IMG/VR virus record: IMGVR_UViG_3300032216_000678
Span: 1-33,791 of that record
From: a virus
Taxonomy: Duplodnaviria > Caudoviricetes
DNA length: 33,791 nt
Strand: one strand, 5' to 3'
The translations under genes and the position numbers were made by a program. Below, piece after piece: positions 2,891 to 27,700 of the stretch. Numbering within the stretch: position 1 is the first letter of the stretch; the number at the start of each line of letters is the position of its first letter. Below the pieces are notes generated by a model. It saw only the letters and a program-made list of their open reading frames with translations. It did no database searches and had not been told where the DNA came from.

Positions 2891-2962
2891 CATTTCAGCC
2901 ACTTGCCCCGCGAGTCGGGGCTTGTGAGTGCAATGTTGCACGTTTACAACTGGAGAATCAAC

Positions 2963-3541
2963 ATGACATTTTCAACCCGTGAGGAATGGCTCACCCAAGG
3001 CGTGGAAGAACTCCGCCCCATCTTTGCCCTGCATAACAAACCCTTGCCGCAAAAGATTCGGGTCGCCTGTGGTTTCCCTCTGGACGCCAAGCGATCCAAG
3101 GCTATCGGTCAATGCTGGGCAGACACTGCAAGCGCAGATCACACCATCGAAATTTTGATCAGCCCCACCCTTGACAACCCCGTAGAAGTTTTTGAAGTGC
3201 TGGTGCATGAGTTGTGCCACGCCACCGCAGGCGCGATGAACCACGGGGTTAACTTTCAGAAAATTGCTGGTTTGATGCACCTTGCACCAACGGGTACGGG
3301 ACGTGAGCCGTGGAAGTCAACTCGGGGTCACGTTCCCTTCTTCGCCAATGACTATGCCGCCATCATCGATTCGCTCGAGGCTTACCCGCACTCTGCGCTG
3401 ACGTTCGCCACCAAGAAAACGCAAGGCACTCGGATGTTCAAGGCTTTGTGCCCTTCCTGCGGTTATACAGTGCGGCTCACCCAAAAATGGGTCGCTGTTG
3501 GTATGCCTACCTGCCCCTGTGGCGACACCCTTGCCCTTTAA
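2963..3541 (+). CDS. SprT-like zincin metallopeptidase with C-terminal Zn ribbon
   Basis: HELCH (HExxH), downstream H-G-x-x-F, CPSC...CPC. Start moved to the ATG at 2963 after GGAGA. Confidence 0.85.
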   Translation: MTFSTREEWLTQGVEELRPIFALHNKPLPQKIRVACGFPLDAKRSKAIGQCWADTASADHTIEILISPTLDNPVEVFEVLVHELCHATAGAMNHGVNFQKIAGLMHLAPTGTGREPWKSTRGHVPFFANDYAAIIDSLEAYPHSALTFATKKTQGTRMFKALCPSCGYTVRLTQKWVAVGMPTCPCGDTLAL

Positions 3542-3564
3542 TTTTTTAACTCTGGAGAATCAAC

Positions 3565-4998
3565 ATGACTACACCTCACAACGTTCACTTTGAAATCAGC
3601 CGCATCCCCCTAAACTTGGTGATCTCGGCATACAACCGCCTGAACACCTCGCCGCTGGTTGGCGCGACTAAGACTGACGCCGTAAACTGGTTGGCTGAAG
3701 AGGTCGGCAAGGGCTTTTGTTCCATTGACGACATCCGCAACTCACCCATCATTGCCGCCGTTAACCGCACGGGTGACCCCGCCATTGCCGCCAAGATTGA
3801 TGCCGCTGGTGCTACCGCCGCCGCCGCCCATAATAATGCGCTCAACGCTTTGACTCGCCTCGACAATCACTCCACCATCATGGAACATCAAGAACAGGCA
3901 CTTGCGACACTGACCAAGGGCTTGGACAACTTGTCCGAGAAGATGGGGACATTCACCATCGACCCCGCCTTGGTGCGCGAGTCGGTTGCCAAGGCAGTGG
4001 CTGATGAGTTCGCACCATTTAAACGTGCAGTCAAAGCCGCCAAAGCTGAAGCCGTGGTTGCCGACCTGTCTGCTGTTCACGTTGTTGACACTAAGACCTG
4101 CGCGGAAGTGTTTGGCGTGGACGTCAAGGATACCAAGGGCAACCCCCTCAAAGTATCCATCTGGAATGATCCGACCGCCCCCGCCGTTGATCCTGATTTT
4201 ATTTGGACTGAGTCGATTCTCAAGCACCTGCTCTTGTCGGATGCCACGGGCGAAAACCTGTGGTTTGGCGGCGAGAAGGGTACGGGTAAGAGCGAGACCG
4301 CCCGTCAGTTTGCCGCCCGTACTGGACGCGCGTTTACACGCATCAACTTCCACAAGCACACCAGCGCAGAAGAGTACTTGGGTGCTACTGGTCTCAAGGG
4401 TGGGGAGACAGTGTTCGAGCCGCGAGACTTCCTCGCCGCCTACACACACCCGTCCAACGTGATCCTGCTCGATGAGGTGACCAACGCTGACGCTGGAGAA
4501 CTTGCCCCCCTGAACGGCTTCCTCGAGCCGAATGCCGCCGTGTCATTCGGCGGTCAGACATGGGGTCGCGCCTCGGGTGTGCTGGTGTTTGTTGCTGACA
4601 ATACCTTCGGTTCGGGTGATGACTCGGGACGCTACACGGGGACGCGCACCCAGAACGTGGCACTGGTTGACCGCTTCTCCCGTGTGATCCCCTTCACCTT
4701 CCTGCCCCAAGACTTTGAGATCGAGGCGATCACCAAGCGCACGGGTTGCACCAAGGCTCTGGCGGAACACGCGCACCAAGCCGTGCGAGTGGCGCGTATC
4801 AAGGTAGAAAAGGGTGAGATCGTGGACGCCCCATCGATTCGCTCGATCATGGCATTCGTTCGCGCCCTGACTGTACTTGACCCTGCCCAAGCTTGGGAGA
4901 CCGCCGTAGTTGCGCGTCAACCCTCCGAGAGCCACGCCATCCTGCGCGGCATCTTTGAGACCTGCATTAGCCAAGATCAAATTAACTCCAACCTGTGA
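3565..4998 (+). CDS. CobS/MoxR-like AAA+ ATPase
   Basis: Walker A GEKGTGKS, Walker B ILLDE, ADNT and ALVDRF motifs; adjacent to a VWA gene. Confidence 0.9.
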   Translation: MTTPHNVHFEISRIPLNLVISAYNRLNTSPLVGATKTDAVNWLAEEVGKGFCSIDDIRNSPIIAAVNRTGDPAIAAKIDAAGATAAAAHNNALNALTRLDNHSTIMEHQEQALATLTKGLDNLSEKMGTFTIDPALVRESVAKAVADEFAPFKRAVKAAKAEAVVADLSAVHVVDTKTCAEVFGVDVKDTKGNPLKVSIWNDPTAPAVDPDFIWTESILKHLLLSDATGENLWFGGEKGTGKSETARQFAARTGRAFTRINFHKHTSAEEYLGATGLKGGETVFEPRDFLAAYTHPSNVILLDEVTNADAGELAPLNGFLEPNAAVSFGGQTWGRASGVLVFVADNTFGSGDDSGRYTGTRTQNVALVDRFSRVIPFTFLPQDFEIEAITKRTGCTKALAEHAHQAVRVARIKVEKGEIVDAPSIRSIMAFVRALTVLDPAQAWETAVVARQPSESHAILRGIFETCISQDQINSNL

Positions 4999-5006
4999 GG
5001 TGCAAT

Positions 5007-6542
5007 ATGAAAACGTACAAAGGCTACACGTTTAAACCCGCCGTCCAAGAACTGATCCACAAGGTCGCCAAGGACTTGGGTAAGACTGTCAAGATTCGGT
5101 GGAATGCAGGTGTGCAGACCGCTGGAATCGACCAGTACAACAACATCTACTTGTCTGATGTTGCTGACGATGCAATTCTGAATCAGAATGACTTGATTAA
5201 GTATTGCGGATACGGGGTGCATGAGTTGCTCCACTCCCTGTACACCAACTTCAACTACTGCTCCGACATTGCCTATGTTCGCGCTCTGCACAACGGGATT
5301 GAGGACGCATGGATTGAGCACAAGGGAATTGCCAAGCTGGTAACTGGTAATGCAGGTGGCTTGCTGAGTGGGCTGGTTGAAATGATGACCGATGTTGCCT
5401 TGGTCGAGGTCAAGGATTGGTCAGACCCCAAGCAGTACCCCTACGCCCTCGCCGTCTATCTGCGGCGCCACGCCACAACTAAAGTGCCGTTGGCTAATGG
5501 TCTCGAGCCGATCTTTGCCCACGTTGCCGCCAAGCTGGACTCTTGTGTGGACAGTGGCGACACTCTTAAATTGGCTGAGTGGGTCTATGCCCAACTGAAA
5601 ACCCTACCAGAAGACAAGCCCAAGAAAGGCTCAGGAAAGCCATCAGATGGCTCTCAGAGCGGCGATCAGGGCGAGGGTAAGGGTGAGGGTGCGGGTCAGC
5701 AAGAAAACGGCTCAGGGAATGCCAGACAACCCAAGCCCAACACTGTCCCCGTCAACCCCGAGCCAACCCTCGGTGAGGGCAAGGCTGGTAACGGCGGGAG
5801 CTACAGCGAGGACGCAAGCCTGAAGCCAAATGGCTACCACGTTGAAGCTGGTGCTCTGTACGCCCCAAACGCATCTGTACCCGCCAAGCTTCGTTATAGC
5901 GTCAAGCGTTTGTTTGAGGACTCGGGACGTGATGAGTTCCAGCGCAACCGCAAGGCTGGTTCGGTTAACGTCCACGCCCTGCCAACCGCTGGTTTCAGCG
6001 ATAAGGTGTTTAAACGTAGACACGAGGCTGAAGGCATCGACTCTGCCGTGGCTATCGTGCTTGACGTGTCGGGGTCAATGAGTGATGCCGCTGGTTCGGG
6101 CAGTCGGATTGCAATTGCGGCTGAAGCTTGCATGGCTCTGGTCGATGTGCTCAACCGCGCAGGTGTAGCCACTACAGTGCTGACCTTCGCGGGAAATACA
6201 AGTGTTCTCAAGCCGTTCAATATGTCGGCGGCAACGGCGATCAAAGAACTTTGCAAGGTCAGAACCTCTGGCTCGACCAACGACTACTTTGCCGTGCGAT
6301 ATGCACACAAGGTTTTGTTCAACCGCCCCGAACAGCGCAAGGTCTGCCTTGTGCTGACTGATGGTGATGGTGATGAAATCAGCACGAGCGAACAGATCGC
6401 GGTGGGCGAACGCCTCGGCGTGACAACGATTGGGATCGGCATTGATCTGGACGTTAGCAGGGTTTATCCCAAGAACGCGACTGTCAAAAACTTGAGCGAG
6501 TTGGGTGCAGTGGCATTCGACAAGATCAAGTTGGCGGCTTAA
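5007..6542 (+). CDS. CobT-like protein: N-terminal HExxH domain, G/E/Q-rich linker, C-terminal VWA
   Basis: HELLH...NGIED; MIDAS motif DVSGSM...T...LTDG; GAGG RBS before the ATG at 5007. Confidence 0.9.
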   Translation: MKTYKGYTFKPAVQELIHKVAKDLGKTVKIRWNAGVQTAGIDQYNNIYLSDVADDAILNQNDLIKYCGYGVHELLHSLYTNFNYCSDIAYVRALHNGIEDAWIEHKGIAKLVTGNAGGLLSGLVEMMTDVALVEVKDWSDPKQYPYALAVYLRRHATTKVPLANGLEPIFAHVAAKLDSCVDSGDTLKLAEWVYAQLKTLPEDKPKKGSGKPSDGSQSGDQGEGKGEGAGQQENGSGNARQPKPNTVPVNPEPTLGEGKAGNGGSYSEDASLKPNGYHVEAGALYAPNASVPAKLRYSVKRLFEDSGRDEFQRNRKAGSVNVHALPTAGFSDKVFKRRHEAEGIDSAVAIVLDVSGSMSDAAGSGSRIAIAAEACMALVDVLNRAGVATTVLTFAGNTSVLKPFNMSAATAIKELCKVRTSGSTNDYFAVRYAHKVLFNRPEQRKVCLVLTDGDGDEISTSEQIAVGERLGVTTIGIGIDLDVSRVYPKNATVKNLSELGAVAFDKIKLAA

Positions 6543-9136: not shown

Positions 9137-9164
9137 GAAGGGGGGCTGATGCCCCCCGTTCTTT
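9134..9164. terminator. Likely bidirectional intrinsic terminator
   Basis: GGGGGGC-TGAT-GCCCCCC (9140-9157) with purine-rich and T-rich flanks, between convergent genes. Confidence 0.8.
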
Positions 9165-10857
9165 AAAAGTTGTCCAAACACTCTGCATACGTTCCCGCTG
9201 TCTTGTTGTACAGCATGGTAGTTTCACCCTGAGTCCCAACCCACCGATACCTGCACTTCCACACCGCGACCTCAACAAGAGAGCCTTCCCCCCGATGGAC
9301 TGTAATACCGCAGTCGGTCTTAGCCCACCACGCCATAGAGCCGCTGATTGACATCCCGTCTGGGCGGGGTTGTTCATTGCCAGATCGTGCCATCTTGGAC
9401 GGGTGAGCCACAAACCATGTGTGAACATCATGGGACATACAGAACTTCTTTACCTTGGTCAGCATATTGCTGATTGCCTCGGTCTCTGTGCTGTCCCTGC
9501 GCTCCAGTTCGATGTAGTTGTAGGGGTCGATCAGAAGACCACGCACACCCATACGCTTCACTGCAACTCGAGCGCGGTCAAGGATGGACTCAAGGGTGTT
9601 AGGTTCTTCCCCGTTCGAGTCGATGAATAGGAAATGATCGTGTACCCATTTAAACGCCTTGTTCTTTTCTTCGGCAGTCATCTGATCCCTGCCCTCAAAG
9701 AAACGTTTACACAAGTAGAGTTCCATCAGGCGGGTGATGTGTATCTCTGGCTGATTCTCGAATGAACAGAGGGCGAACTTCCAATCATGCTGACGGGCGA
9801 GGTTGACCATGATCTGGTCAACAAAGTTGGACTTGCCCATCGATGGATAGCCTGTCACCACTGTGAGTTGACCTGTCGCAACTGTATATACCTCATCGAG
9901 GGTCGGGTAACCCGTGCTGAACCCCTTGCCTGTCCCCTTCGCATACAGATCATTGATCTTGTCGAGGTACGTCCCCGCCTCGCTTATGCCTGAAATGGGA
10001 TAGGCTTGGGCTTTGCTGATGACCTCTGCCACGCTATCTTGTGTGGGGTCATCGCTCATGTGGATTTCGTTTAAATCCTTCTTGTCAAACTTGGCGAGTC
10101 GACACTTCTCCTTGCCAATCCTTCTTGCCAGTTCCTCTGCGAGTGCTTGCCCAGCGGGGTCTTGATCTGTGGCTAAGACTACGTAGGGGGCGGCATCAAT
10201 GATCTCTCTGGCATTCCATACGTAGGAGAACTTCTTGTCCTCCGATGGCAGAACCTTTCCATCTGCCACCTTCACAGGTGCGCCCGACGGGACTGATACC
10301 ACGTTGTTTAAACCTAACTCAACTGCGGTCAGGTAATCCATCTCTCCCTCTACGATGATGAGGGGTTCGCCCTTGGCGACATTCTCTATACCAAAAAAGT
10401 CATGCGCCCCGCCCATCTCTTGTGTGAAGTCTTTGTCTTCGATGCTTCGGTACTTTGCTGAGACCAATGCGCCGCCTCGGTAGTAGGGGAAACCAATTGA
10501 CTCTGTCTCCCTGTCAAGCTTTCGGAAATACTTCCGAGCGGAAAACAATTTTGATTTGTCTGCTGTCTGGTTTGAAATGCCTCTGGAGTTTAGGAATGCG
10601 TAATGCTCTGGACGCAGGGCGTTACTTAGGATGACTGGGTTTGGTACTGCGGACAAGGGACGACCCTTCCTTTCAGTTTCTGGTTGAAGTGATCCACTGA
10701 TCTGGCAGTGGTGACAATGGTAGACAACAGCCCCGTCCGACTTGCGGGTGAGGGTCATGTCCTTCATGTTTTTCTTTCTGCGGTCGGGCAGACAGAAGGG
10801 ACATACTACCCGAGTTGTCTCATTGAAATAAGTAGATTCAATGAGTTCGGCAATCAT
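9163..10857 (-). CDS. T7 gp4/Twinkle-like bifunctional DNA primase-helicase
   Basis: Zn-binding CPFC...HCHHC; TOPRIM EGEMD and DQD; SF4 helicase Walker A TGYPSMGKS; IDPYN, VAHP and ISGS motifs. Confidence 0.95.
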   Translation of the reverse strand: MIAELIESTYFNETTRVVCPFCLPDRRKKNMKDMTLTRKSDGAVVYHCHHCQISGSLQPETERKGRPLSAVPNPVILSNALRPEHYAFLNSRGISNQTADKSKLFSARKYFRKLDRETESIGFPYYRGGALVSAKYRSIEDKDFTQEMGGAHDFFGIENVAKGEPLIIVEGEMDYLTAVELGLNNVVSVPSGAPVKVADGKVLPSEDKKFSYVWNAREIIDAAPYVVLATDQDPAGQALAEELARRIGKEKCRLAKFDKKDLNEIHMSDDPTQDSVAEVISKAQAYPISGISEAGTYLDKINDLYAKGTGKGFSTGYPTLDEVYTVATGQLTVVTGYPSMGKSNFVDQIMVNLARQHDWKFALCSFENQPEIHITRLMELYLCKRFFEGRDQMTAEEKNKAFKWVHDHFLFIDSNGEEPNTLESILDRARVAVKRMGVRGLLIDPYNYIELERRDSTETEAISNMLTKVKKFCMSHDVHTWFVAHPSKMARSGNEQPRPDGMSISGSMAWWAKTDCGITVHRGEGSLVEVAVWKCRYRWVGTQGETTMLYNKTAGTYAECLDNF

Positions 10858-11105
10858 TTGATGCTGCCATCTGGATTGCGTTTAAACGAACGATTCGCCG
10901 ATGCAGGCTTCGCTCGCAGGTTGGATCGAACTGTAGTTCCACCCTTGCTTAGAGGGGTCTTGTGATCCACATCTTTACCATCGCCTTTATGGACAACGCC
11001 TTCACGCTCCAGCATTCGCCGAGCCTTGTTACGCTGTGCTCTTTTTTTCTTGACGGCTTCAGTGCCATCGTAGTTTTCGTACTCTTTTTTGTAATCTCTT
11101 GCCAT
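10854..11105 (-). CDS. Small HNH endonuclease-family protein (T7 gp7.7-like)
   Basis: KKRAQRNKARR...GDGKDVDHKTPLSKGG...NL...NRS. Confidence 0.85.
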   Translation of the reverse strand: MARDYKKEYENYDGTEAVKKKRAQRNKARRMLEREGVVHKGDGKDVDHKTPLSKGGTTVRSNLRAKPASANRSFKRNPDGSIK

Positions 11106-11187
11106 GTTGTTTCCTATTGTGAGCGGGGTGTAAATAATACCTTCCGCAAGTTATTTCTACAACGCTTTCACTGCGTCTGCTCGTTCG

Positions 11188-11394
11188 CTATTCATTCGTC
11201 AATTCCAGCTGGTCTCCTCCCTTCACTGATTCGATTTGGACGCCTTTGCCGAGAAGGGTCACTAGGTCATTCTGATCGGCTACACGCACATTGAATGTAG
11301 TGTGCGCCGCATGGTGCATTGCCTGAGCGCGGCTTGATGACCGTACTAGACGGGCTTCAGTCCCGTGATACACGGCGTAAATTCTTTCTTTCAT
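11188..11394 (-). CDS. Hypothetical protein
   Basis: AGGAG RBS; RLVRSSSRAQA...VRVADQNDLV. Confidence 0.75.
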   Translation of the reverse strand: MKERIYAVYHGTEARLVRSSSRAQAMHHAAHTTFNVRVADQNDLVTLLGKGVQIESVKGGDQLELTNE

Positions 11395-11431
11395 GTTGAC
11401 TCCTGTAAATGCCCCCTTGAGGGGCTTTGTT

Positions 11432-11845
11432 AAATTTCACCCAAAGACCCCCCTACCCCAGTGAAGAAGTAGAAGGGAAGGTGCTTCACCCCACATACGT
11501 GGATCATCATGTGACGCATAGCGTCAACCCCTCGGCTTGATGATTCGACCAGCCGCACGGATTATTCGGGAACTGCCCCCTAGCCCATGTGATTGAAGGT
11601 TGGTTCTGTTCGGTGTGGACACATCGGGCACTACCCCTACCCGCCACTCCGTTTACGAATATCAGTGAAGCAATTTGATGTGTGGTTAGTAGCCACACAT
11701 ACCTGTCAACACGACTCGTCCCCCGTCCCACTAGGGTCTGCTCCTTCCAGAGCCAACCTTCAATCACACGGTTGCATACCGTGTACGCTTTCCTTCCGCG
11801 CCACCACGTTGAGGTGCTTGCTATCGTGCGGAGTACGGCTGGGAG
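11432..11845 (-). ncRNA. Candidate large structured RNA (or ssDNA element) upstream of the primase-helicase operon
   Basis: Nested long-range stems 11549-11558/11833-11842 and 11588-11608/11748-11768 plus many local hairpins. Confidence 0.6.
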
Positions 11846-11862
11846 ATAAGAATGTTGAGACG

Positions 11863-11983
11863 AAAAAAAACCGTTAGAACAGACCCCGGTGAGAAAACAT
11901 TGCCTTGTGGGCAACGCCACCCCATACGGGGTCGGAGTCTGATCTAACGGCTTTCGCTTCGCTCGGTTTCTCACGCCTAGCAA
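11863..11983 (-). ncRNA. About 120-nt leader or small RNA ending in a strong intrinsic terminator
   Basis: 22-bp stem 11867-11888/11933-11954 followed by U8 on the minus strand; directly after a consensus promoter. Confidence 0.7.
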
Positions 11984-11988
11984 AACAA

Positions 11989-12016
11989 ATTATACACACT
12001 CTTCAACAAGTGTCAA
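11989..12016 (-). promoter_or_regulatory. Consensus sigma70 promoter
   Basis: TTGACA-16 nt-TATAAT on the minus strand. Confidence 0.85.
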
Positions 12017-12021
12017 TAAGT

Positions 12022-12215
12022 TGTTGGTGGCTCACATGAAGCAGTGGTTATGTTCTTAACTCTTACGGGTTTCAACGGCGCTAACCCGTTGCACCACCAA
12101 CACGGCTGGGGACTATGTAGGGTTGCAAGCCAAAGCTCCCTAGTGTCAGGCTCCACAATCCCCATGCGTGTTGGCGCTGATGTTTACAGTCCATCAGCAC
12201 GACTTCTCGGAGACC
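12022..12215 (-). ncRNA. Candidate structured leader RNA
   Basis: Stems 12097-12114/12157-12174, 12022-12030/12094-12102 and 12176-12198; extended -10 TGgTATATT at 12228-12220. Confidence 0.45.
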
Positions 12216-12331
12216 GCAGAATATACCACAAGGGAGATCACGGCATCCTTTAGAGCCGCTGTATCTAGATTACAGCAAACACTTTTGTGATGTGTTGGTG
12301 TTGATCAGTCACCTAACGCCCATGATCTCTC

Positions 12332-12367
12332 TTGTTGATATGCTTGCCCACGCAAGCATATCAACAA
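12332..12367. repeat. Perfect 16-bp inverted repeat with a 4-nt loop
   Basis: TTGTTGATATGCTTGC-CCAC-GCAAGCATATCAACAA. Confidence 0.95.
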
Positions 12368-12383
12368 AGTCACAAGCTGTCAA
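12355..12383 (-). promoter_or_regulatory. Putative sigma70 promoter
   Basis: TTGACA-17 nt-TATGCT on the minus strand. Confidence 0.7.
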
Positions 12384-12410
12384 GTTCATATGTTTAAACG
12401 TTATGTTACT

Positions 12411-12440
12411 TGTATAGATTATGTATAGATTATGTACAAT
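12411..12440. repeat. 11-bp tandem repeat (about 2.5 copies)
   Basis: TGTATAGATTA TGTATAGATTA TGTACAAT. Confidence 0.8.
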
Positions 12441-12474
12441 ACGTTTACAGCTTTGCAGCTGTATGTTGTTTCTC

Positions 12475-12915
12475 CTATGGATTAGCCCCGACCTTGCGTT
12501 GGGGCTTTTTTTTGGGACTCACCTCTGGGATTTTGTCGATGATGATCTCAGCGCGTGGGTTCTCTGGATCAAGACCCCAGTAAACGTGCCTCTCCTTGAC
12601 CTGTCGGTCGTTCTCATAAATAAACCCCTGCATCAAATCCAAGATCAAAGACTCATCCAAGTCGGGTCTCCTTGATGCGTAGTGAATCCACATCGTCACC
12701 CGCAGATCACCAGACATCAGCACCGGCAGCTGCGTGCATTGCTGTTTAAACATGTCAGAGTAGTTAAGAGCCTTCTGCGACTTGATCAGCCTCGACACCC
12801 CTCCGTACCTGACCAGCTTGCGACTGTTCGCCTTGGATGCAGGTTCCCCATAAATAATTATTGATAGGGATTGCAACTCATCACTAATTGTAGTATCATT
12901 CACTTTGTCAGTCAT
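12475..12915 (-). CDS. rusA: RusA-like Holliday junction resolvase
   Basis: GEPASKANSR...RRPDLD...ILDLMQG..YENDRQV...NPRAEI. The start may instead be the TTG at 12876. Confidence 0.85.
   Translation of the reverse strand: MTDKVNDTTISDELQSLSIIIYGEPASKANSRKLVRYGGVSRLIKSQKALNYSDMFKQQCTQLPVLMSGDLRVTMWIHYASRRPDLDESLILDLMQGFIYENDRQVKERHVYWGLDPENPRAEIIIDKIPEVSPKKKPQRKVGANP
12871..12899 (+). promoter_or_regulatory. Putative sigma70 promoter for the recombination operon
   Basis: TTGCAA-17 nt-TATCAT, 35 nt upstream of the ATG at 12935. Confidence 0.65.
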
Positions 12916-12934
12916 AAAACACCTTGGAGAAAAC

Positions 12935-13789
12935 ATGAAAATTACGAACGTTCACGGGGTACCTGCACCGCTTGTTACTCTAGCAGAAGCCCAATACTAC
13001 AGCAAGGGGAAGAGTGACTACAGCGTCACTGAATTGATGTCTCCCCCTCGAGTACGCAGACTTCAAGAGAAGCACGACAACGAGGTTGTTCAGGACGTCA
13101 CAACCATGATGTGGTCGATGCTTGGCTCTGCGCTCCATGTGGTTATGGAGCGTGGGGAAACAAAGGGGTGGACGTCAGAGGAGCGTTTGTTTACCACGGT
13201 GGATGGGATGATCATCTCTGGCGCAATCGATCTCCAAGAGGACACCCCCGATGGGGTGATCATCCATGATTACAAGTTCACCTCTGCGTGGGCTGTGATG
13301 AATGAGAAGATTGAATGGGAACAGCAACTCAATGTGTACAAGTGGTTGGTTGAGACGGTCAAGAAGCGTAAGGTGGTTGGCCTTCGCATCTGTTCCCTGA
13401 TCCGTGACTTCAGCCGCCACGATGTTCGCCCAGACTATCCAGAGGCACCTATCCATATGTTGGATATCCCGATGTGGGATTCCTACAAAACCGAGGCTTA
13501 CATCAGGGAGCGTTTAAACATGCACCGTGATGCCAAGCTTGCCGCAGACTTCAACGAGGAACTACCCCAATGTTCCCCGCAGGAGAGGTGGATGTCGGAG
13601 ACGACATACGCCGTCAAAAGAGAGGGTCGCAAGACAGCGATCCGTGTTTATAAAACCATAGAAGAAGCCAATCAGTTGGCAGAAAAGGAAAAAGGCTATG
13701 TCGAAACCCGACTTGGAGAACCCAAGCGATGCACCGGAAATTATTGCGGTGTCGCCGAGTTCTGCGATCAGTATCACAAAGGAGAATAA
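12935..13789 (+). CDS. PD-(D/E)XK exonuclease (Cas4/RecB-like)
   Basis: GSALH...EERL...SGAID...HDYK...QLNVY and C-terminal Cys cluster; GGAGA RBS. Confidence 0.9.
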   Translation: MKITNVHGVPAPLVTLAEAQYYSKGKSDYSVTELMSPPRVRRLQEKHDNEVVQDVTTMMWSMLGSALHVVMERGETKGWTSEERLFTTVDGMIISGAIDLQEDTPDGVIIHDYKFTSAWAVMNEKIEWEQQLNVYKWLVETVKKRKVVGLRICSLIRDFSRHDVRPDYPEAPIHMLDIPMWDSYKTEAYIRERLNMHRDAKLAADFNEELPQCSPQERWMSETTYAVKREGRKTAIRVYKTIEEANQLAEKEKGYVETRLGEPKRCTGNYCGVAEFCDQYHKGE

Positions 13790-17251: not shown

Positions 17252-17442
17252 CGCAAGAAGAATTCAGCGAATGGATTGAGCGGGTTGGGCAAATCCTGAG
17301 AGGGGTTGCTGTGTTCACTGCGTTTATTGGAGCCTGCATGGTGTCTGGATACTTTGTCACCAAGATGGAGCAAAGCGAAATGAAGAAGTCTGTCCCCGAC
17401 TGCGGCTCATGCCGCCTGTATAAACAAGGAGAAAAGAAATGA
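17248..17442 (+). CDS. Small membrane protein
   Basis: GAGGAGG RBS; one hydrophobic helix. Confidence 0.7.
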   Translation: MTQEEFSEWIERVGQILRGVAVFTAFIGACMVSGYFVTKMEQSEMKKSVPDCGSCRLYKQGEKK

Positions 17443-17759
17443 AACGCTTATTGGTTATCGCCGCCCTTGTGTGCGGCACTGCACACGCCGACTTTAAAAC
17501 TGGAAACGAGCTACTGTCTGATATGGAGTCAACTGTTGGCTACACAGAAGGCACAGTTATGGGCTATGTCAAAGGCGTGATTGATGCCTATGGTGGTTTA
17601 TTCCTTTGTCCACCTGCCACCCTTACCGGAGGACAATCGGTTGCAATCGTGCGCCTATATCTTGAACGCAATCCCTCTGAGCGGCACGAGGGTGCATCCG
17701 TGCTGATCTTCCGTTCAATGAAACAGTGGCCTTGCAAGAAGAGCGGGAGTTCGCTATGA
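17439..17759 (+). CDS. Secreted Rap1a/Tai-like immunity-family protein
   Basis: Signal peptide ending AHA; TGNELL...GYVKGVID...CPP..T..Q...IV..YL..NP..RH...WPC. Confidence 0.8.
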   Translation: MKRLLVIAALVCGTAHADFKTGNELLSDMESTVGYTEGTVMGYVKGVIDAYGGLFLCPPATLTGGQSVAIVRLYLERNPSERHEGASVLIFRSMKQWPCKKSGSSL

Positions 17760-21501: not shown

Positions 21502-21788
21502 CCTATAGAAACAAGAAGCTTCTTGAGGCCGTTCGTGAGGCTCCTTGTATGCACTGTGGGGCGCAGGATGGCACTGTAGTCGCCGCCCACTCCAACCAAC
21601 AGCGTGACGGTAAAGGCATGGGCATCAAAGCCTCAGACTACCGCATCGCCGCCCTCTGCCACATCTGCCACTTCCAGTTGGATCAAGGGCTTCTGTGGAA
21701 CAAAGAGCAAAGGCGTGAGGTATGGGAAGACGCCCACCGCAAAACGATGGGCTGGCTCTTCGACAACGATATTATTTCAGTTCGCTGA
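21498..21788 (+). CDS. YbcO/DUF1364-like Zn-binding putative nuclease
   Basis: CMHC...VVAAHSN...GKGMGIKASD..IAALCHICH. Confidence 0.8.
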   Translation: MTYRNKKLLEAVREAPCMHCGAQDGTVVAAHSNQQRDGKGMGIKASDYRIAALCHICHFQLDQGLLWNKEQRREVWEDAHRKTMGWLFDNDIISVR

Positions 21789-24700
21789 TTGTCTTCTTCA
21801 GGGTCTGGATGTTGGCCGTCAGGTTCTTCTCCGCCCTTCCAATCGCAGTCAAAGCATCTCTCTTCTCTTCTGCGCTCATGGGTGAGTTTGTGATCTGGCG
21901 GCGCATGTCTCTCAATTGAGTCATGGTCTTGTCCATCTGGGAAACCATAGGTCTGACCGCCAGCGCCCCCACATTCTCCTGCAAGTACCTTGCGTAGTCC
22001 TCTGGCCTACTCGTCTTTTCCAAAAGGTTCATCGTTCGCACGGTTGTGTCAACGGTGTGCTTCAGGTCGTAGTAGGCCGTCACAGAGCCACGCGCCTCTG
22101 GGTCAATTGCAAAGCGTTTAATCACCGGCATCTGTTCAAACCGCTTAGCCGGTTTAGGGCTGTCGCTGTTTAAATCCATGATGGTGTCGATCAGGTCAAC
22201 TGCGTACATGCCCATCGTTCCGGTGTAGCCCTTGATGACGTGATCCGTCTTGAGTGGGGATAACCCTAACTTACCAAGGAACTCAGCCAGTGCTGACGTT
22301 CCCGGCCCGACTTGGAACTCAGGATCAATGTCCTTCATGCCAGCGCCAACGATCTCCCTCTGGGTGAAGAAGTTGTAGTTGGTCATGGACTCAAGGATAG
22401 GCTTCATGGTCTGCGGAATGTAGGCGGCAGGACTCAGCGGCACAAAGCTGTTAGCTGCTCTGTACATAGCCTTGCGGAAGTCTTCACCCGTATCTGTTCC
22501 GAAGAAGTAGGCAGCAATCCGCTCGGGTACCGTTTTAAACAGGGTACCCACCTCAAACGGGATTGGGATTCGTCCAACGCCCGGGATGATCCAGTTGTTG
22601 TCTTTGGTCTCTTGCTCCTGATCCTCGTAGTCTGGATTACCCGCCACTGCGAAGTAGTACATCATGGACAGGCCCAGCATGGTCATGCCGCGCACCCAGA
22701 ACTTACGCTGGATTTCCTTGGCGTCAGCTGTATTCATGTTGCCGGTGGAGGCGCGGTAGAACACATCCAGACCTTGGATACGTGCATTCAAGAATGGGAC
22801 TGCCGCAGTCAAAATGCGAACGACTGGAGAGCTACCCTTGCGGTTGAAGTTCATCACCTCTTGTGCGCGGTACAGGGCTTCAGCCTCGTCGCCTGTCTCC
22901 TTCAATACACGCTCGTAAACAGCCATACGGGTGGCTGCATCCGACGCCGTCGTGGCGTGCTCCAAACCGTCCCACACAGATTTAAACGGGGTAAGCAAAC
23001 TCTTGCCGTGGCCGGATTTCTTTTCCAAATCCTTGGCGAAGGTTTTGCCAGACTGCTCAACGTTGGCGCTGAACTCGTACCCACCAAGGATACCGGCGTC
23101 CATTAAAGCTTCAAAGGATGGATCAACACCCTTCATGGCCTTACCAAAGTTGATAATGGTTCCCGCAATTGGAGTCATGTTTGCACCGCTGGTCACGTAG
23201 GCCGACAGTGAGTCACGCAACAAGTTGGTCATAATGAAGCCCGGATCGCGTGTAACCACGTTACGCAGGAAGTTTGCCGGGGCCGACAGCAGGCCCATAA
23301 ATGGCAGCTCTGGCATGTTTAAACTCTTCACTGCGTCGATAAAGAGCTGATCGGTACACTGATACTGAACCTGTTTGCCGTTCTCCAGAACCGAAATAGT
23401 CTCCAGTGCCGAGACCTTCGACCCCGGCTGAATATCGTGAACAATCAGGACATCCTTACCCACCTTTACAGCCCTCTGTGCGGCGATGTTTTTCATGCCT
23501 GCACCGATGGCCGCATGGGTATTGCGGGTGATGGTTTCAAGGAAATCAGCCAGAGGTGCTTCACCACCCTTCAGCGCCTTGGGTGTCTTGACGCCGGAGA
23601 TAGCATTGTAAATCTTTGGTCCAAGGGTCTGCTCTCCGTCCATCTGGCGATAGAAGGGGATGTAGTCAGAGTACATGGTGAACTGACGGGCAGCTTCATC
23701 CGAAAGAACACCCGCCTTCTTCTGGTAATCCACCAGCGCATTGTTGAACTCCACCCACTCCTTGCGGATGTCTTCAAACTCAGGAAACTTCTGACCAATT
23801 TCCGCTGCGTGTTTGATGTCGGCTGGCGTGATTAAACGCTCACGGCCTTCCGAGAATAACCGGGCACCCCGTTTAACCGCAGAGTAAAACTGGAAGTACT
23901 GGTAAACCTTGGGATCGTTGTATTTTGCCAACGGTGCAAAGATGGCGGACACGCCTTTCTTGCTGTGATCCACGAGGGTTACACCATTCCTGATAACAGG
24001 CACACCGCCACGGCGGTTGCCCACACCCATCACAGATGCAACCACACCAGAATGGTTATCTGACATCAAGGCAGCAGCCTCCGCACTGTTGCGTGCAAGC
24101 AACGCCTCGCCGCCCATCTTTTCTGCGCGAAGCTTGTCTGCTTCACTTAGTCGGTTGTAGCGGTTGATTGCCGCCTGACGGTAGGATGAGAACTTTTCAG
24201 GAGCCAAGGTGCTAAGCAGACGCTCGGCCCAGCCCTTTTGCTCGCGGGTGGTTGTTACCCGGTCAACAGCAGCGTTTACATCTGCGGACATCGTTGGCAA
24301 GCTGTAGCGGATGTTTTTGGTCTCCATTCCATATTCACCAAGGTTTCCGGTGATGGACTTGACCTGATTGGGCTGGTACACCGCATAGGTCAATGGGGAG
24401 GTCTGGCTCTTGCGAGAAACAAAGCCATCAAAGCCGATCTTGCGAATGGCCTTCTGAACCAACTTGTCTTCAATCGCGGCTGTCAAGCCCTTCTGAAGCT
24501 GGCCCTTGAGGTTTCGCTCCCACTGCTCTTGGTATTTGCTGGACTCTGCGTTCTTGTACGTGTCAGATTTTAAGTACGCAACAGCGCCAAGAATCTGATC
24601 CACATGGTCAGGGTTCCTGAAGTCAAACGGCATCTCCGAACGGGCGTACAGCGGCATCACCTTCTTCTTGGAGGGTGACAAGTCCATGAGGATTTCATCC

Positions 24701-27700
24701 ATCTCGGGCTTGACCGACTTGTACTGATACATCCCGAACGCAGGGATGCTCTTGTTAACCTCTTTGATGATCTGAGCGCCACGCTCCTCGGTGATCCTGC
24801 CGCTTTCAACGGCTTTCTCGACCGCCTGTTCAAACAAGGGAATCTTCTCGCTCTTGTTCAGGGCGCGGTACATCTGCTCACGCAGACGATCTTCATCAAT
24901 GTCGGCAAACCTCTCGGACTCTTTGGCGGTGTCCGACAAATAGATGATCCCATCCTTGAACTCAACGAAGTCGCTGGTGGTGCCGTGGAACATCTTGATG
25001 GGGTCACCCCCCTCATCAAGCCACTTGCTGGCTCCAACATACTGTTTAAACTCTTCAGTGTCGGGCACGTTTGCTTTGTCTGCTGCTTCCTGAGCTTCTT
25101 CTGCGCTTGGGAAAGCAACGTTCTTCAGGCTGTAGCGGATGTCCGGGTTGTTAATGTCGTAAGTGCCAATGTTGCCGGTGGCAGACTTGATCTGAGACGG
25201 CTCATAGACGGCAAGGTTCTTTTGGCCGCCTTCTTTTACGTAGAAACCGTCAAAACCCAAATCCTTGGCCGCTTTTTGAACCGTCGAGTTTTCAATCTCT
25301 TCCCAGTTGCCAGTCTTTAAGGTTCCAGCAATCTTGTTACCAAGAGCGCGGCCATATGAGTCAAACTTTTTGTTCATCTCAGCGACAACAGCCGCCACAT
25401 GATCTGGGTTTTCGTAGTCAAAAGGATTCTCTGCGCGGACGTAAACGGGCAGGATGTTTGGCCCGGTGGGCATCATTGGTTTATACGCATTACGCAGGTA
25501 CTCTTGAGCCTCTGCGGTGGCGTCTTCGTACTTGCCTGACTTCAGGCTGTCGATCATCACCTTGCCCTCTGGGAGGGCTTTGTAATCCTTGCGGATCGCG
25601 GCAACCGCATCCTTCACGCCCTTCGCCAGTTCCTCTTTGGATAAGAACTCTTCTGGGTGTGCAGACATCCAAGCCGCACTGTCTTTTGAGAACATCTCGG
25701 CGAACTTTGGATTGTCCGTCAGGAAGATGGCACCAGCCTGCTTGCCTCTGAACTCAGTGATGTCACGGGCTGTGCCGTGGTACATAACCTTGGGTTCGCC
25801 ATCTGCGCCAACAATCTTGCTGTTACCAAACCAGCGTTTAAACTCAGGGGTGTTTGGAGCACGTAGGCTGAGCTTCTTCTCACCCATTGCAATCTCTGCT
25901 TGGGTGCCAACGTAGTTGACTGGCGCATTGTGGTTCAAGATGACCATCATTCCCATTGAGGGAACTGCGTAACCATCGTATCCAGCATCAACAACTTCAG
26001 TCTCAAACTGGTTGGAATCGCCTTGGGCCTGTGTAAACAACTTGTTCATCGCCGGGCCGGGGGCTAGGATGTTGTCGAACTGTTGCTTGTAAACGTGGTT
26101 ACCAACACCCGACTCAACGGCTGGCATGGTGCCGTCTTCTTTAGGAATGTAGAAGTAAACCCGCTTCTTGATGCGGTCGTCAAAGGCATCTTCCAAGCGG
26201 CGACGCTCTGCACCACGCAGACCTGTGCCGTACTTAGCGGCATTAAGTTCTTCTACCTTGGCGTTTCCGTAGTGAACGCCATTAAAACTGCTTGCGTCAG
26301 GCTGTTTTGTGCCAAGCACAATACCCTTTACCGGATTCTCTATGTTTTCAACACGGCCTTCTTTCCATGTCCATTCTGGCATTAGCCCAGTTTTTTGGTC
26401 TGCAAATACAGTATCCTCAACCTTAGCCGTTTGATTCTTTTCGCCGCTTGGGCCGTAGTTCAACCAGCTGTTTTGACCTCGAGTCTCAGAGGTGAGTGCG
26501 CCAAGCGCAGGGCCAGTAAAAAGCTTCGCATGAGCCTGCCATGCATTCTCTTCGCCTCGAGCACGGAATCCAGCGCCCTCAAGGCCGTGACCAAATGCGT
26601 CATGCACGGCGCGAAACAAATCGTTTGCCAGCACAGGCGCAAGGGGGCCATTGGGACCGCCAACAGGCCACTTAATGTTGGTTTTTGACAGCAGCGGGTT
26701 GGCTTCTGGGCTGAAGTCTGTTTCGTTTCCAAAACCTTCGTTGGTTGGGTATATGCCCATTTCCTTGTTGGCGCGGATATCCCGCATCGCATTCCAAGGA
26801 GAAGATAAGTATGTGAGGTTGTCGGGTTTGCTGGTGTCAATAAACCAAAACTTGTAGCCAGCATTTTCCAAAGCGCGATACTGATCAGTGGTTTGTTTGA
26901 TCAGGTCTTTGTATGCCGCCTTGACCTGTGGGTCTTGGGGTGCATGATCCATCCTGTCGTACTCTTCCGCAATACGGCGAGCACGATCTTCATCAACATC
27001 AACGTAACGCGCTTGGCGTTTTAACTCGATGCCTTTTTCTGCGGCATATTTTTCTGCGACCCCAACAAGTCTCGGGTCTGGGCCATGAAAGCCTTCGACT
27101 GATGGCGCATCTTCAAGAGGCGCAAGTCTGCGATCCTCTTCGAGTCTTCCTCGTTCTCCGATTGAGTACTTGGGTTGTTCGCCTCCTGCGCTGGGTCGAG
27201 CGGCAGGTTGTTCAGGTCTAGTGGTTTCACGCTTCTCTCCTTTTACTGGCCGTGCAGCCGACGGAGCAGCACCGCTGATACCCAGCTTACCGCCTTTTCC
27301 TCTTGACTCTGCGTATTTTCTTCCTCCATCACTGAATCCGTAGGATGGTGAGAGGACTCCCATTTTGGTGAAGAGCTTTTGCTCATAGAACCAGAGGAGG
27401 GACTGGGCTTGGTACGGCTTGATTCTTGCATTTTTTGCTACCTCATTAACAAGTGCTTTGACTGCTCTGCGTTGCGGCTCAGTTGGCGCATCAACAATTT
27501 TTCCATCCGGCCCCAGCATTTTGCCAAAGTACCGATTGAAGGTTCGGGTCATCCACTTGTCTACAGTGACATCGTGGATACCATTTAAATTGGATACAAA
27601 TGGTCCAACTTTTGGTCCAAAAGCGTAAAGCCCCGGCTTTATGTCGGCGAGTTTACCATCAATACCAGACTTCATATTGCCATACTGAAGACGGAATTGA

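Follow-up and report, generated by a model that had tools for sequence, protein, structure and literature searches.

A phage RNA family with a predicted triple-pseudoknot fold and a covarying self-repeat as a candidate R-loop replication origin

The window, a linear virus record of 33.8 kb (33,791 nt) that is 56% complete, carries on its minus strand a conserved, single-copy, non-coding phage element whose ~225-nt core is predicted to be a triple-pseudoknot RNA. Judging from the comparative evidence, this element, which we call family A, is a real and new RNA family, and its self-repeat design is common to the families with which it is interchangeable. On balance, the sequences suggest that family A probably acts in cis as a transcription-activated, ColE1-like R-loop replication origin. 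The 410-nt stretch delimited in a preliminary description of this DNA consists of the core (11838-11435, minus strand) and an optional insertion of ~190 nt; the whole 414-nt stretch had a fold z of -4.6, with 0/100 shuffles as low. The element and its surroundings comprise the following features:

12475-12936, minus strand: RusA-like gene, the upstream border of the ~1-kb gap that holds the element
12023-12101, minus strand: accessory structured module (GGGTTAGCGCC ... CACTGCTTCATGTGAGC), here upstream of the promoter
11989-12016, minus strand: sigma70-like promoter TTGACA-16-TATAAT, 12/12 consensus, predicted to drive leader and core
11863-11981, minus strand: leader (module 1), a 5' hairpin and a long U-tailed hairpin (11954-11863), fold z = -6.8
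11785-11838, minus strand: 5' domain of the core, a double pseudoknot (P1, PK1, P3, PK2 and a lone long-range pair); helices 1-5, 94.8-100% paired, with two-sided changes
11556-11783, minus strand: three-way junction closed by CACGG/CCGTG; helices 6-8
11583-11775, minus strand: optional ~190-nt insertion in the variable hairpin, i.e., the 21-bp stem of the preliminary description and its interior; 14/123 usable unique cores
11503-11555, minus strand: third, H-type pseudoknot, CGGCT/AGCCG crossed by ATCATCA/TGATGAT; helices 9-10
11485-11491, minus strand: repeat copy 1, GGGTGAA, covarying with copy 2 and predicted to anchor the template strand at copy 2
11448-11483, minus strand: predicted terminal hairpin, in which the invariant G4-TA-G6 tract (11459-11448) pairs with a variable C/U strand (11483-11466)
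11436-11442, minus strand: repeat copy 2, GGGTGAA, closing the conserved stretch on its 3' side and predicted to be where the RNA-DNA hybrid begins; at 11435, contigs from other runs part from the window
11411-11428, plus strand: GC hairpin, terminator-like on this strand and facing into the element; in many, not all, helicase-lineage homologues
9163-10857, minus strand: T7 gp4-like primase-helicase (phrog_239, E 6.5e-87; Toprim and DnaB_C)

A search on the G-tract pattern returned 120 further viral loci, 110 of them with the core, and the motif is estimated to occur in ~260 IMG/VR stretches. The 163 complete cores reduced to 124 unique sequences and, once a 49-nt artefact had been dropped, to 123 usable ones; 109 measured 208-255 nt, and 14, the window included, carried an insertion of 110-200 nt. 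Of the 109 short unique cores, L022, L036, and L113 were excluded as near-duplicates and the other 106 aligned with MAFFT; the fold modeled from these sequences has 42 pairs, in which a double pseudoknot at the 5' end is followed by a three-way junction and then by the third pseudoknot, which is of the H type. Covariation across relatives, which the preliminary description had proposed as a check, proved strong: over 106 homologues, 97.6% of 4417 cells paired and 33/42 pairs showed a two-sided change, with 0/500 shuffles as good and slid controls 29-41% paired, the model being derived from the same sequences that it scores and the shuffle ignoring relatedness. A mutual-information scan without structure input ranked the base-paired columns top, and each helix displayed several independent pair types (e.g., CG:62, GC:36, AU:5, and UA:3 in the second pseudoknot). 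The three-way junction holds the variable hairpin and a conserved GGGGGCAGTTCCC hairpin (11580-11568). Helices 9 and 10 of the H-type pseudoknot were 99.4% and 97.6% paired, with two-sided change in 3/5 and 5/7 pairs, and their linkers GGTCGA and AGGGG are single-stranded in the model.

The minus strand is the sense strand. GNRA loops closed 58/93 and 27/102 hairpins on this strand vs 0 and 1 on the other, the sense strand folded better in 58/60 cases, and G-U pairs were common. Family A combines compensatory covariation with strand-specific RNA features, the mark of a structured noncoding RNA. Its borders are sharp, since contigs from four other runs cover 11435-11841 and then diverge at both edges; some of the contigs from other runs span 11583-11775, and some skip this insertion.

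Several helices proposed from the single sequence take on a different meaning in this model. The near-perfect 21-bp stem 11588-11608/11748-11768 exists, and its arms extend to 24 nt with 92% complementarity (11585-11608/11748-11771), but it belongs to the optional insertion and not to the core. The insertions have a terminal stem common to all and interiors that are largely unrelated; in L095, L102, and L046, the interior holds tRNA T-arm-like strings such as GGTTCGATTCC inside the shared terminal stem. The outer stem 11549-11558/11833-11842 appears in the single-sequence fold but is not supported, being only 65.1% paired (493/500 shuffles as high), because its arms belong to other, covarying helices. 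All three pairings described for the 3' domain (ATCATCA/TGATGAT, TGACGC/GCGTCA, and CCAC/GTGG) were found in place, but the first is no nested stem: it crosses CGGCT/AGCCG and thus forms a pseudoknot.

A 158-aa ORF overlaps the element, and its protein-level conservation had been named as evidence that would speak against an RNA. We found no such conservation. The ORF's register is open in 32/123 cores, core lengths modulo 3 are distributed 46/34/43, nine protein matches cover only 13-35% of it, and neither Pfam nor PHROG gave a match. Because core lengths fall in all three frames, the register is mostly closed, and the protein matches are partial, we regard this ORF as a shadow. The suggestion of an undescribed large phage noncoding RNA is thus supported by the covariation, the strand-specific G-U pairs and GNRA loops, the unconserved ORF, and the lack of an Rfam family. 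A comparison with Rfam 15, also proposed in the preliminary description, gave 0 matches in the window at gathering score and none on the cores in 16 loci scanned; below threshold, 11000-13000 gave weak, short terminator-like matches only.

With one core as the query, plasmids yielded a single chance match and cultured phages chance matches only. Phage MW202545 matches the accessory and leader modules and not the core. Among bacterial genomes, the core was present in 2/120 pattern matches, both on short MAG contigs (a beta-proteobacterium and a member of the Burkholderiales), a weak hint that the phages with family A may have a beta-proteobacterial host. None of the 120 metagenome loci was a small circular contig. 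Full-text literature searches returned no description of family A, although an unnamed listing in the supplements of PMC10690425 or PMC5737381 is possible; the motif strings themselves were matched in full text only by a paper on a fish mitogenome (PMC3739747). ARAGORN found no tRNA or tmRNA in the window.

The primase-helicase lies downstream of the element in the same orientation, separated from it by a 68-aa ORF and an 83-aa small HNH-like ORF, while an exonuclease gene and a Sak annealing gene in the window point the opposite way. This helicase is one of three replication modules that we found beside family A. Of the 33 metagenome loci that reached 5 kb or more, 30 had a gene of one of three kinds next to the element: the gp4-like gene in 12, an SF2 helicase and/or a Toprim primase in 13, and a small initiator-domain gene in 5; the other 3 had no gene of these kinds. 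The proposal of an origin for the adjacent Twinkle-like helicase was therefore too narrow, only 12/33 of these independently found loci having that helicase; an exclusive link to gp4-like helicases was likewise rejected on the pattern-found cores, with only 24/110 (80 of 120 loci had long flanks). Family A usually heads a rightward operon, with recombination genes opposite, and each of 10/10 records searched whole, 8 of them at least 90% complete, contained one match. Lambdoid-like loci showed the order cro-like gene, promoter, leader, element, and then a gene of ~118 aa for an initiator C-domain. In 6 genomes, four-fold-site skew did not switch at the element (GC4 -0.11 to -0.17, all four classes), and skew in the window follows gene strand. 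Mobilization by the HNH-like gene was considered and rejected, since the small HNH-like gene occurred in only 18 of the pattern-found loci that were examined, alongside the gp4-like helicase. Elsewhere, the window encodes a 2887-aa polyvalent protein (21772-30435) with ART-PolyVal (three stretches) and LPD38 domains, a gene trio of SprT-like, CobS-like AAA, and CobT/VWA (2903-6542), and, in a phage, a Rap1a immunity-like protein (17439-17759).

The slot occupied by family A is also filled by the unrelated families B and C and by the Rfam motif Betaproteobacteria-1, and never by two whole elements together. Families B and C are located as follows:

L343:4720-5000 and 28 other loci: family B, with family A's 5' double pseudoknot (variant 5' domains) and a different middle
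L346:4600-4830 and 26 other loci, and 111 of L547-L666: family C, a ~220-nt structured element whose 3' end repeats a freely variable segment of 7-10 nt

The 5' domain of the core is common to families A and B, as shown by family B 5' matches, and the 3' end of family B reads TGGAG-hairpin-TGGAG and CCTATGG. Family C had no Rfam match in the loci scanned. In L393, Betaproteobacteria-1 occupies the slot (3517-3641), with TGGGAT present twice around a downstream hairpin, and the full element may be longer than the stretch that its Rfam model describes. The near-identical stretches L463:3785-4400 and L479:2506-3100 contain a family A element cut off before the repeat and the G hairpin, followed by a B-like element, which looks like a replacement caught in place. 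On a quick protein tree, the slot families swap repeatedly, with 30 label changes, and identical C-domains stand beside B or C.

The match of the ~118-aa stand-alone gene beside the slot to a PHROG initiator family is confined to the C-terminal portion of the latter (178-261 of 288). The lambda O initiator has a two-domain layout. With the C-domain as bait, the best 80 of 394 loci comprised 68 stand-alone and 12 full-length genes. Among the stand-alone loci of this set with at least 1 kb upstream, 26 carried B, 20 carried C, 3 carried A, and 12 carried none, never two. Exactly one of A, B, and C thus accompanied 49/61 C-domain-only genes vs 0/12 full-length initiators, a contrast that does not represent many independent observations because the N-terminus was lost in one or a few events (2 changes, 1 forced, on a quick tree). 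Iteron-like arrays of at least 3 copies preceded the C-domain in 12/12 full-length genes vs 6/62 among the others, and the full-length genes matched initiator families (8 scanned). Stand-alone C-domains (~118 aa, L326-L393) had no Pfam match (5 scanned), and a fold search gave nothing clear, the best being VIA (Z 4.3) and SPP1 G39P (Z 4.2), with Foldseek E above 6. A scan of 41 ORFs, the longer ones, of one complete 39.3-kb genome left the C-domain gene and the element as the only replication candidates, with no recognizable polymerase, primase, helicase, integrase, or full initiator among these ORFs. One of the 12 stand-alone loci without A, B, or C is L393. Further, unclassified occupants of the slot upstream of the C-domain gene are present in L363, L365, L369, L375, L383, L338, L339, L347, and L389, and L339 and L347 match the family A model in part.

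The helicase used as bait gave a similar picture of exclusive occupancy. Among the best 80 of 190 loci, the 3' part of family A was present in 55, sharing the strand of the helicase and lying 417-3497 nt upstream of it. The remaining 25 comprised 8 with C, 8 with <1.2 kb of upstream flank, and 9 with enough flank but none of A, B, and C (L019, L030, L031, L051, L052, L057, L058, L062, and L074); A and C never occurred together in this set.

The G4-TA-G6 tract reported in the preliminary description is present at the 3' end of the core. It was kept in 91/92 unique tails selected on a different motif, while its partner strand toggles between C and U; 1197/1227 G residues of the tract were predicted to be paired, 402 of them via G-U. 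The tract is invariant while its partner varies, which indicates a sequence constraint beyond pairing, and the modeled pairing makes it probably no free quadruplex-forming run.

A covarying direct repeat, GGGTGAA, which the preliminary description had missed, stands on both sides of the terminal hairpin, its two copies ~45 nt apart. Families A and C both repeat an internal 7-9-mer at their own 3' end, and the two copies covary. In family A, copy 1 matched a minority-class copy 2 in 29/31 cores (2.4 expected; maximum of 9 in 2000 shuffles), and the two nonmatching cores both have GATGGC. A set selected independently of the G tract confirmed the repeat, with 7.3 vs 5.6 nt shuffled (n = 91). The repeat of family C comprised 7-10 identical nt in 27/27 loci, and a separate set, from which 9 pattern matches were left out as chance or incomplete, contained 35 different sequences among 54 unique pairs (7.7 vs 4.3 nt shuffled). 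Within family C, the longest Watson-Crick complement inside the element was at most 5 nt in 17/27. Identity of the copies without an RNA complement suggests that their partner is most simply the other DNA strand, and on this sequence evidence family C is the cleanest case for anchoring. For family A, the segment between the copies usually offers a complement to 4-6 nt of the repeat, so that a switch within the RNA accounts for part of the repeat there. A wobble-direction test, which is weak, gave 3 compatible, 0 reverse, and 3 other changes internally and 41 vs 30 at the 3' boundary for family A, and 21 vs 2, mainly from one fixed position, for family C.

The consensus promoter and the terminator-like hairpin between it and the core, both noted previously, were confirmed as the 12/12 site (12016-11989) and the U-tailed hairpin of the leader. 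The 5' loop of the leader (11974-11967) is complementary to 11896-11889 inside that hairpin. In alignment A4, the two segments can be seen by eye to change in concert, and the complementarity across homologues averaged 7.4 vs 5.2 nt; the leader is predicted to be a pseudoknotted attenuator or a separate small RNA. Leaders of several unrelated sequence families are built alike, the interior of a long U-tailed hairpin being complementary to a 5' loop. A U-tailed hairpin preceded 86/97 cores, within 25 nt in 69, and 39 of those 86 also had a promoter by a strict rule. In other loci and phages, the GGGTTAGCGCC module is found between leader and core. Further upstream in the window are a structured module at 12092-12179 and a second promoter at 12383-12355. 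We found no plus-strand promoter-like site in 10800-12870 and no RNA I-like antisense promoter within the element, nor did the sense strand of the window show a dedicated 3' U-tract after the core. At L116:4047-4119, the Rfam int-alpA motif (36.6 bits) lies just 3' of the core and 5' of the C-domain gene.

We favor an R-loop origin because of the covarying internal and terminal repeat, the exclusive occupancy of the slot, and the neighboring initiator that lacks its N-terminal half and iterons. Host RNA polymerase would start at the promoter, and a fraction of the transcripts would read through the leader, which would meter firing. The scaffold would then fold and hold copy 1 beside the base of the terminal hairpin. 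As this hairpin forms, it would pull copy 2 off the template, and copy 1, being identical, could take its place and block rewinding of the DNA. The RNA-DNA hybrid inside RNA polymerase measures 8-9 bp, and the length of copy 1 would roughly equal it. The persistent hybrid would displace the G-rich nontemplate strand, which might serve as a loading site for the phage primase-helicase or for a host helicase that the C-terminal-only initiator brings in; after RNase H cleavage, the RNA may in addition provide a leading-strand primer. A wider and more tentative proposal is that in several phage lineages the DNA-binding half of initiators, along with the iterons, gave way to interchangeable self-anchoring RNAs, at least A, B, C, and Betaproteobacteria-1; each of these RNAs would carry a freely variable 7-9-nt guide invading the template at its own 3' end and would amount to a reprogrammable RNA-guided origin opener for three unrelated replisome types. 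Counting against an R-loop origin are the 12 C-domain-only loci (among the best 80 of 394) and the 9 helicase loci (among the best 80 of 190) without A, B, or C, as well as the position of the core behind a terminator-like hairpin in 86/97.

The slot is also simply the start of the early operon, where a transcription regulator would equally sit. Just after promoter and leader at the head of a rightward early operon, family A might be a cis regulator of that operon, i.e., a put-like or hybrid-forming antiterminator or a pause or attenuation element, whose repeat would anchor or refold the RNA and alter downstream termination. A single copy and interchangeable families would also fit an essential regulator, and HK022 put sets the example of an RNA-only phage antiterminator (PMC9378689, in extract). 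However, put as described in that extract has ~70 nt and two stems and occurs at both early promoters, whereas family A has ~225 nt, is present once, and follows a U-tailed hairpin; moreover, a regulator leaves the missing initiator N-terminus and iterons unexplained, and we consider this reading rather unlikely. We think it still less probable, and quite improbable overall, that the RNA acts in trans or processes itself (as a scaffold, decoy, or ribozyme), with the two copies alternating on one RNA partner or marking cleavage or ligation sites. The ornate tertiary fold with A-rich linkers, the tolerance of large insertions, and the partial pairing of both family A copies with the strand between them would suit such an RNA, but the repeat of family C is freely variable and mostly without an RNA complement, the fixed position and exclusive occupancy argue for a role in cis, and the dedicated 3' U-tract is missing after the core in the window.

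Covariation alone cannot separate RNA from single-stranded DNA (PMC5737381, in extract), and the fold could in principle act as DNA, as a structured single-stranded origin or a primase or helicase loading site unwound by transcription. We judge this very unlikely given the GNRA and UUCG loops and the abundant G-U pairs on the transcribed strand. The trinucleotide GTC is the T7 primase signal. It occurs in both GCTGGTC and GGGGTC, which would agree with primase loading, but the idea of T7 primase sites is weakened by the loss of the second GTC in 6/91 tails and by the presence of the element beside non-T7 primases as well. Lastly, the free swapping of families on the protein tree and the sharp edges at 11435 and 11841 might reflect an RNA cassette, selfish or mobile, directed to a hotspot by the repeat as its targeting tag. 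Against this stand the single match per record, the absence of reverse transcriptase, transposase, and integrase from the annotated flanking gene clusters, and the repeat itself, which is internal and terminal and not a flanking duplication; such a cassette appears extremely unlikely.

If the R-loop origin is true, RNA-initiated replication would extend beyond ColE1, T4/T7, and mitochondria and be a common modular strategy in uncultured phages, and an RNA fold would substitute for the origin-binding domain of a protein initiator, with no origin-binding protein needed. It would also give a function to the orphan Rfam motif Betaproteobacteria-1, make such origins recognizable by an internal segment that recurs where the element ends on its 3' side, and suggest compact, re-addressable origins for synthetic replicons. 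The natural variation of the repeat gives a direct handle on the Masukata-Tomizawa anchoring model. Were the element a transcription regulator instead, the RNA family with its three pseudoknots would be new all the same, and its self-targeting design unusual.

Structured motifs have been found in other replication regions. ARRPOF, GEBRO, and PAGEV are 223-349-nt motifs in plasmid replication regions, ARRPOF in a rep-independent replicon (PMC5737381, in extract); family A, in contrast, is phage-borne and has no Rfam 15 match at gathering score, and no self-repeat is described for these motifs in the sections available of that paper. Betaproteobacteria-1 (RF02932) does not match family A either, but in L393 (72.9 bits) it fills the slot of these families, flanked by the leader and the C-domain-only initiator. 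HK022 put resembles family A as an RNA-only cis element downstream of an early phage promoter (PMC9378689, in extract), family A being 3 times larger in addition to the differences given above. The T4 origins oriF and oriG share with our proposal a phage promoter and a persistent hybrid (PMC4412123, in extract), but they have a DNA-unwinding element where family A has a conserved fold and a repeat; the 50 nt downstream of family A average 60% purine and 47% G+C and thus contain no marked AT-rich element. Mitochondrial CSB II has a similar string of G run, TA, and G run. A free G tract or G-quadruplex in the manner of CSB II, as envisaged in the preliminary description, is nevertheless not favored, since the family A tract is predicted to lie in a G-U-rich hairpin within the 225-nt fold and no such tract is present in the family C alignment.

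The closest parallel is ColE1 RNA II. In ColE1, a persistent hybrid needs an rG stretch of the RNA meeting a dC stretch of the template, and this hybrid primes synthesis and exposes the other strand to helicase and primase (PMC4412123, in extract). The ColE1 record NC_001371.1 has G6 at 928-933 and at 1175-1180, the latter followed by an A5 run. We take the upstream G6 run to be the active one and A5 to be the junction. Like RNA II, family A would be a promoter-driven folded RNA, G-rich near its 3' end, with a sequence present twice for pairing with the template, and family B ends in CCTATGG and purines like the ColE1 origin string. A repeat that could pair with the template near the putative origin, as in ColE1-type replicons, is found in A and C as a sequence feature. 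The differences are equally clear: there is no homology (model R1 on NC_001371.1 gave a best E of 0.38, outside the origin); family A occurs in phages alongside phage replication proteins and was not found in plasmids with one core as the query; it has three pseudoknots, and its repeats are ~45 nt apart and variable in sequence; and it comes without RNA I, as neither an Rfam RNAI match nor an antisense promoter-like site was found. To judge from these comparisons, family A most likely works like ColE1 RNA II, yet it is no member of that class.
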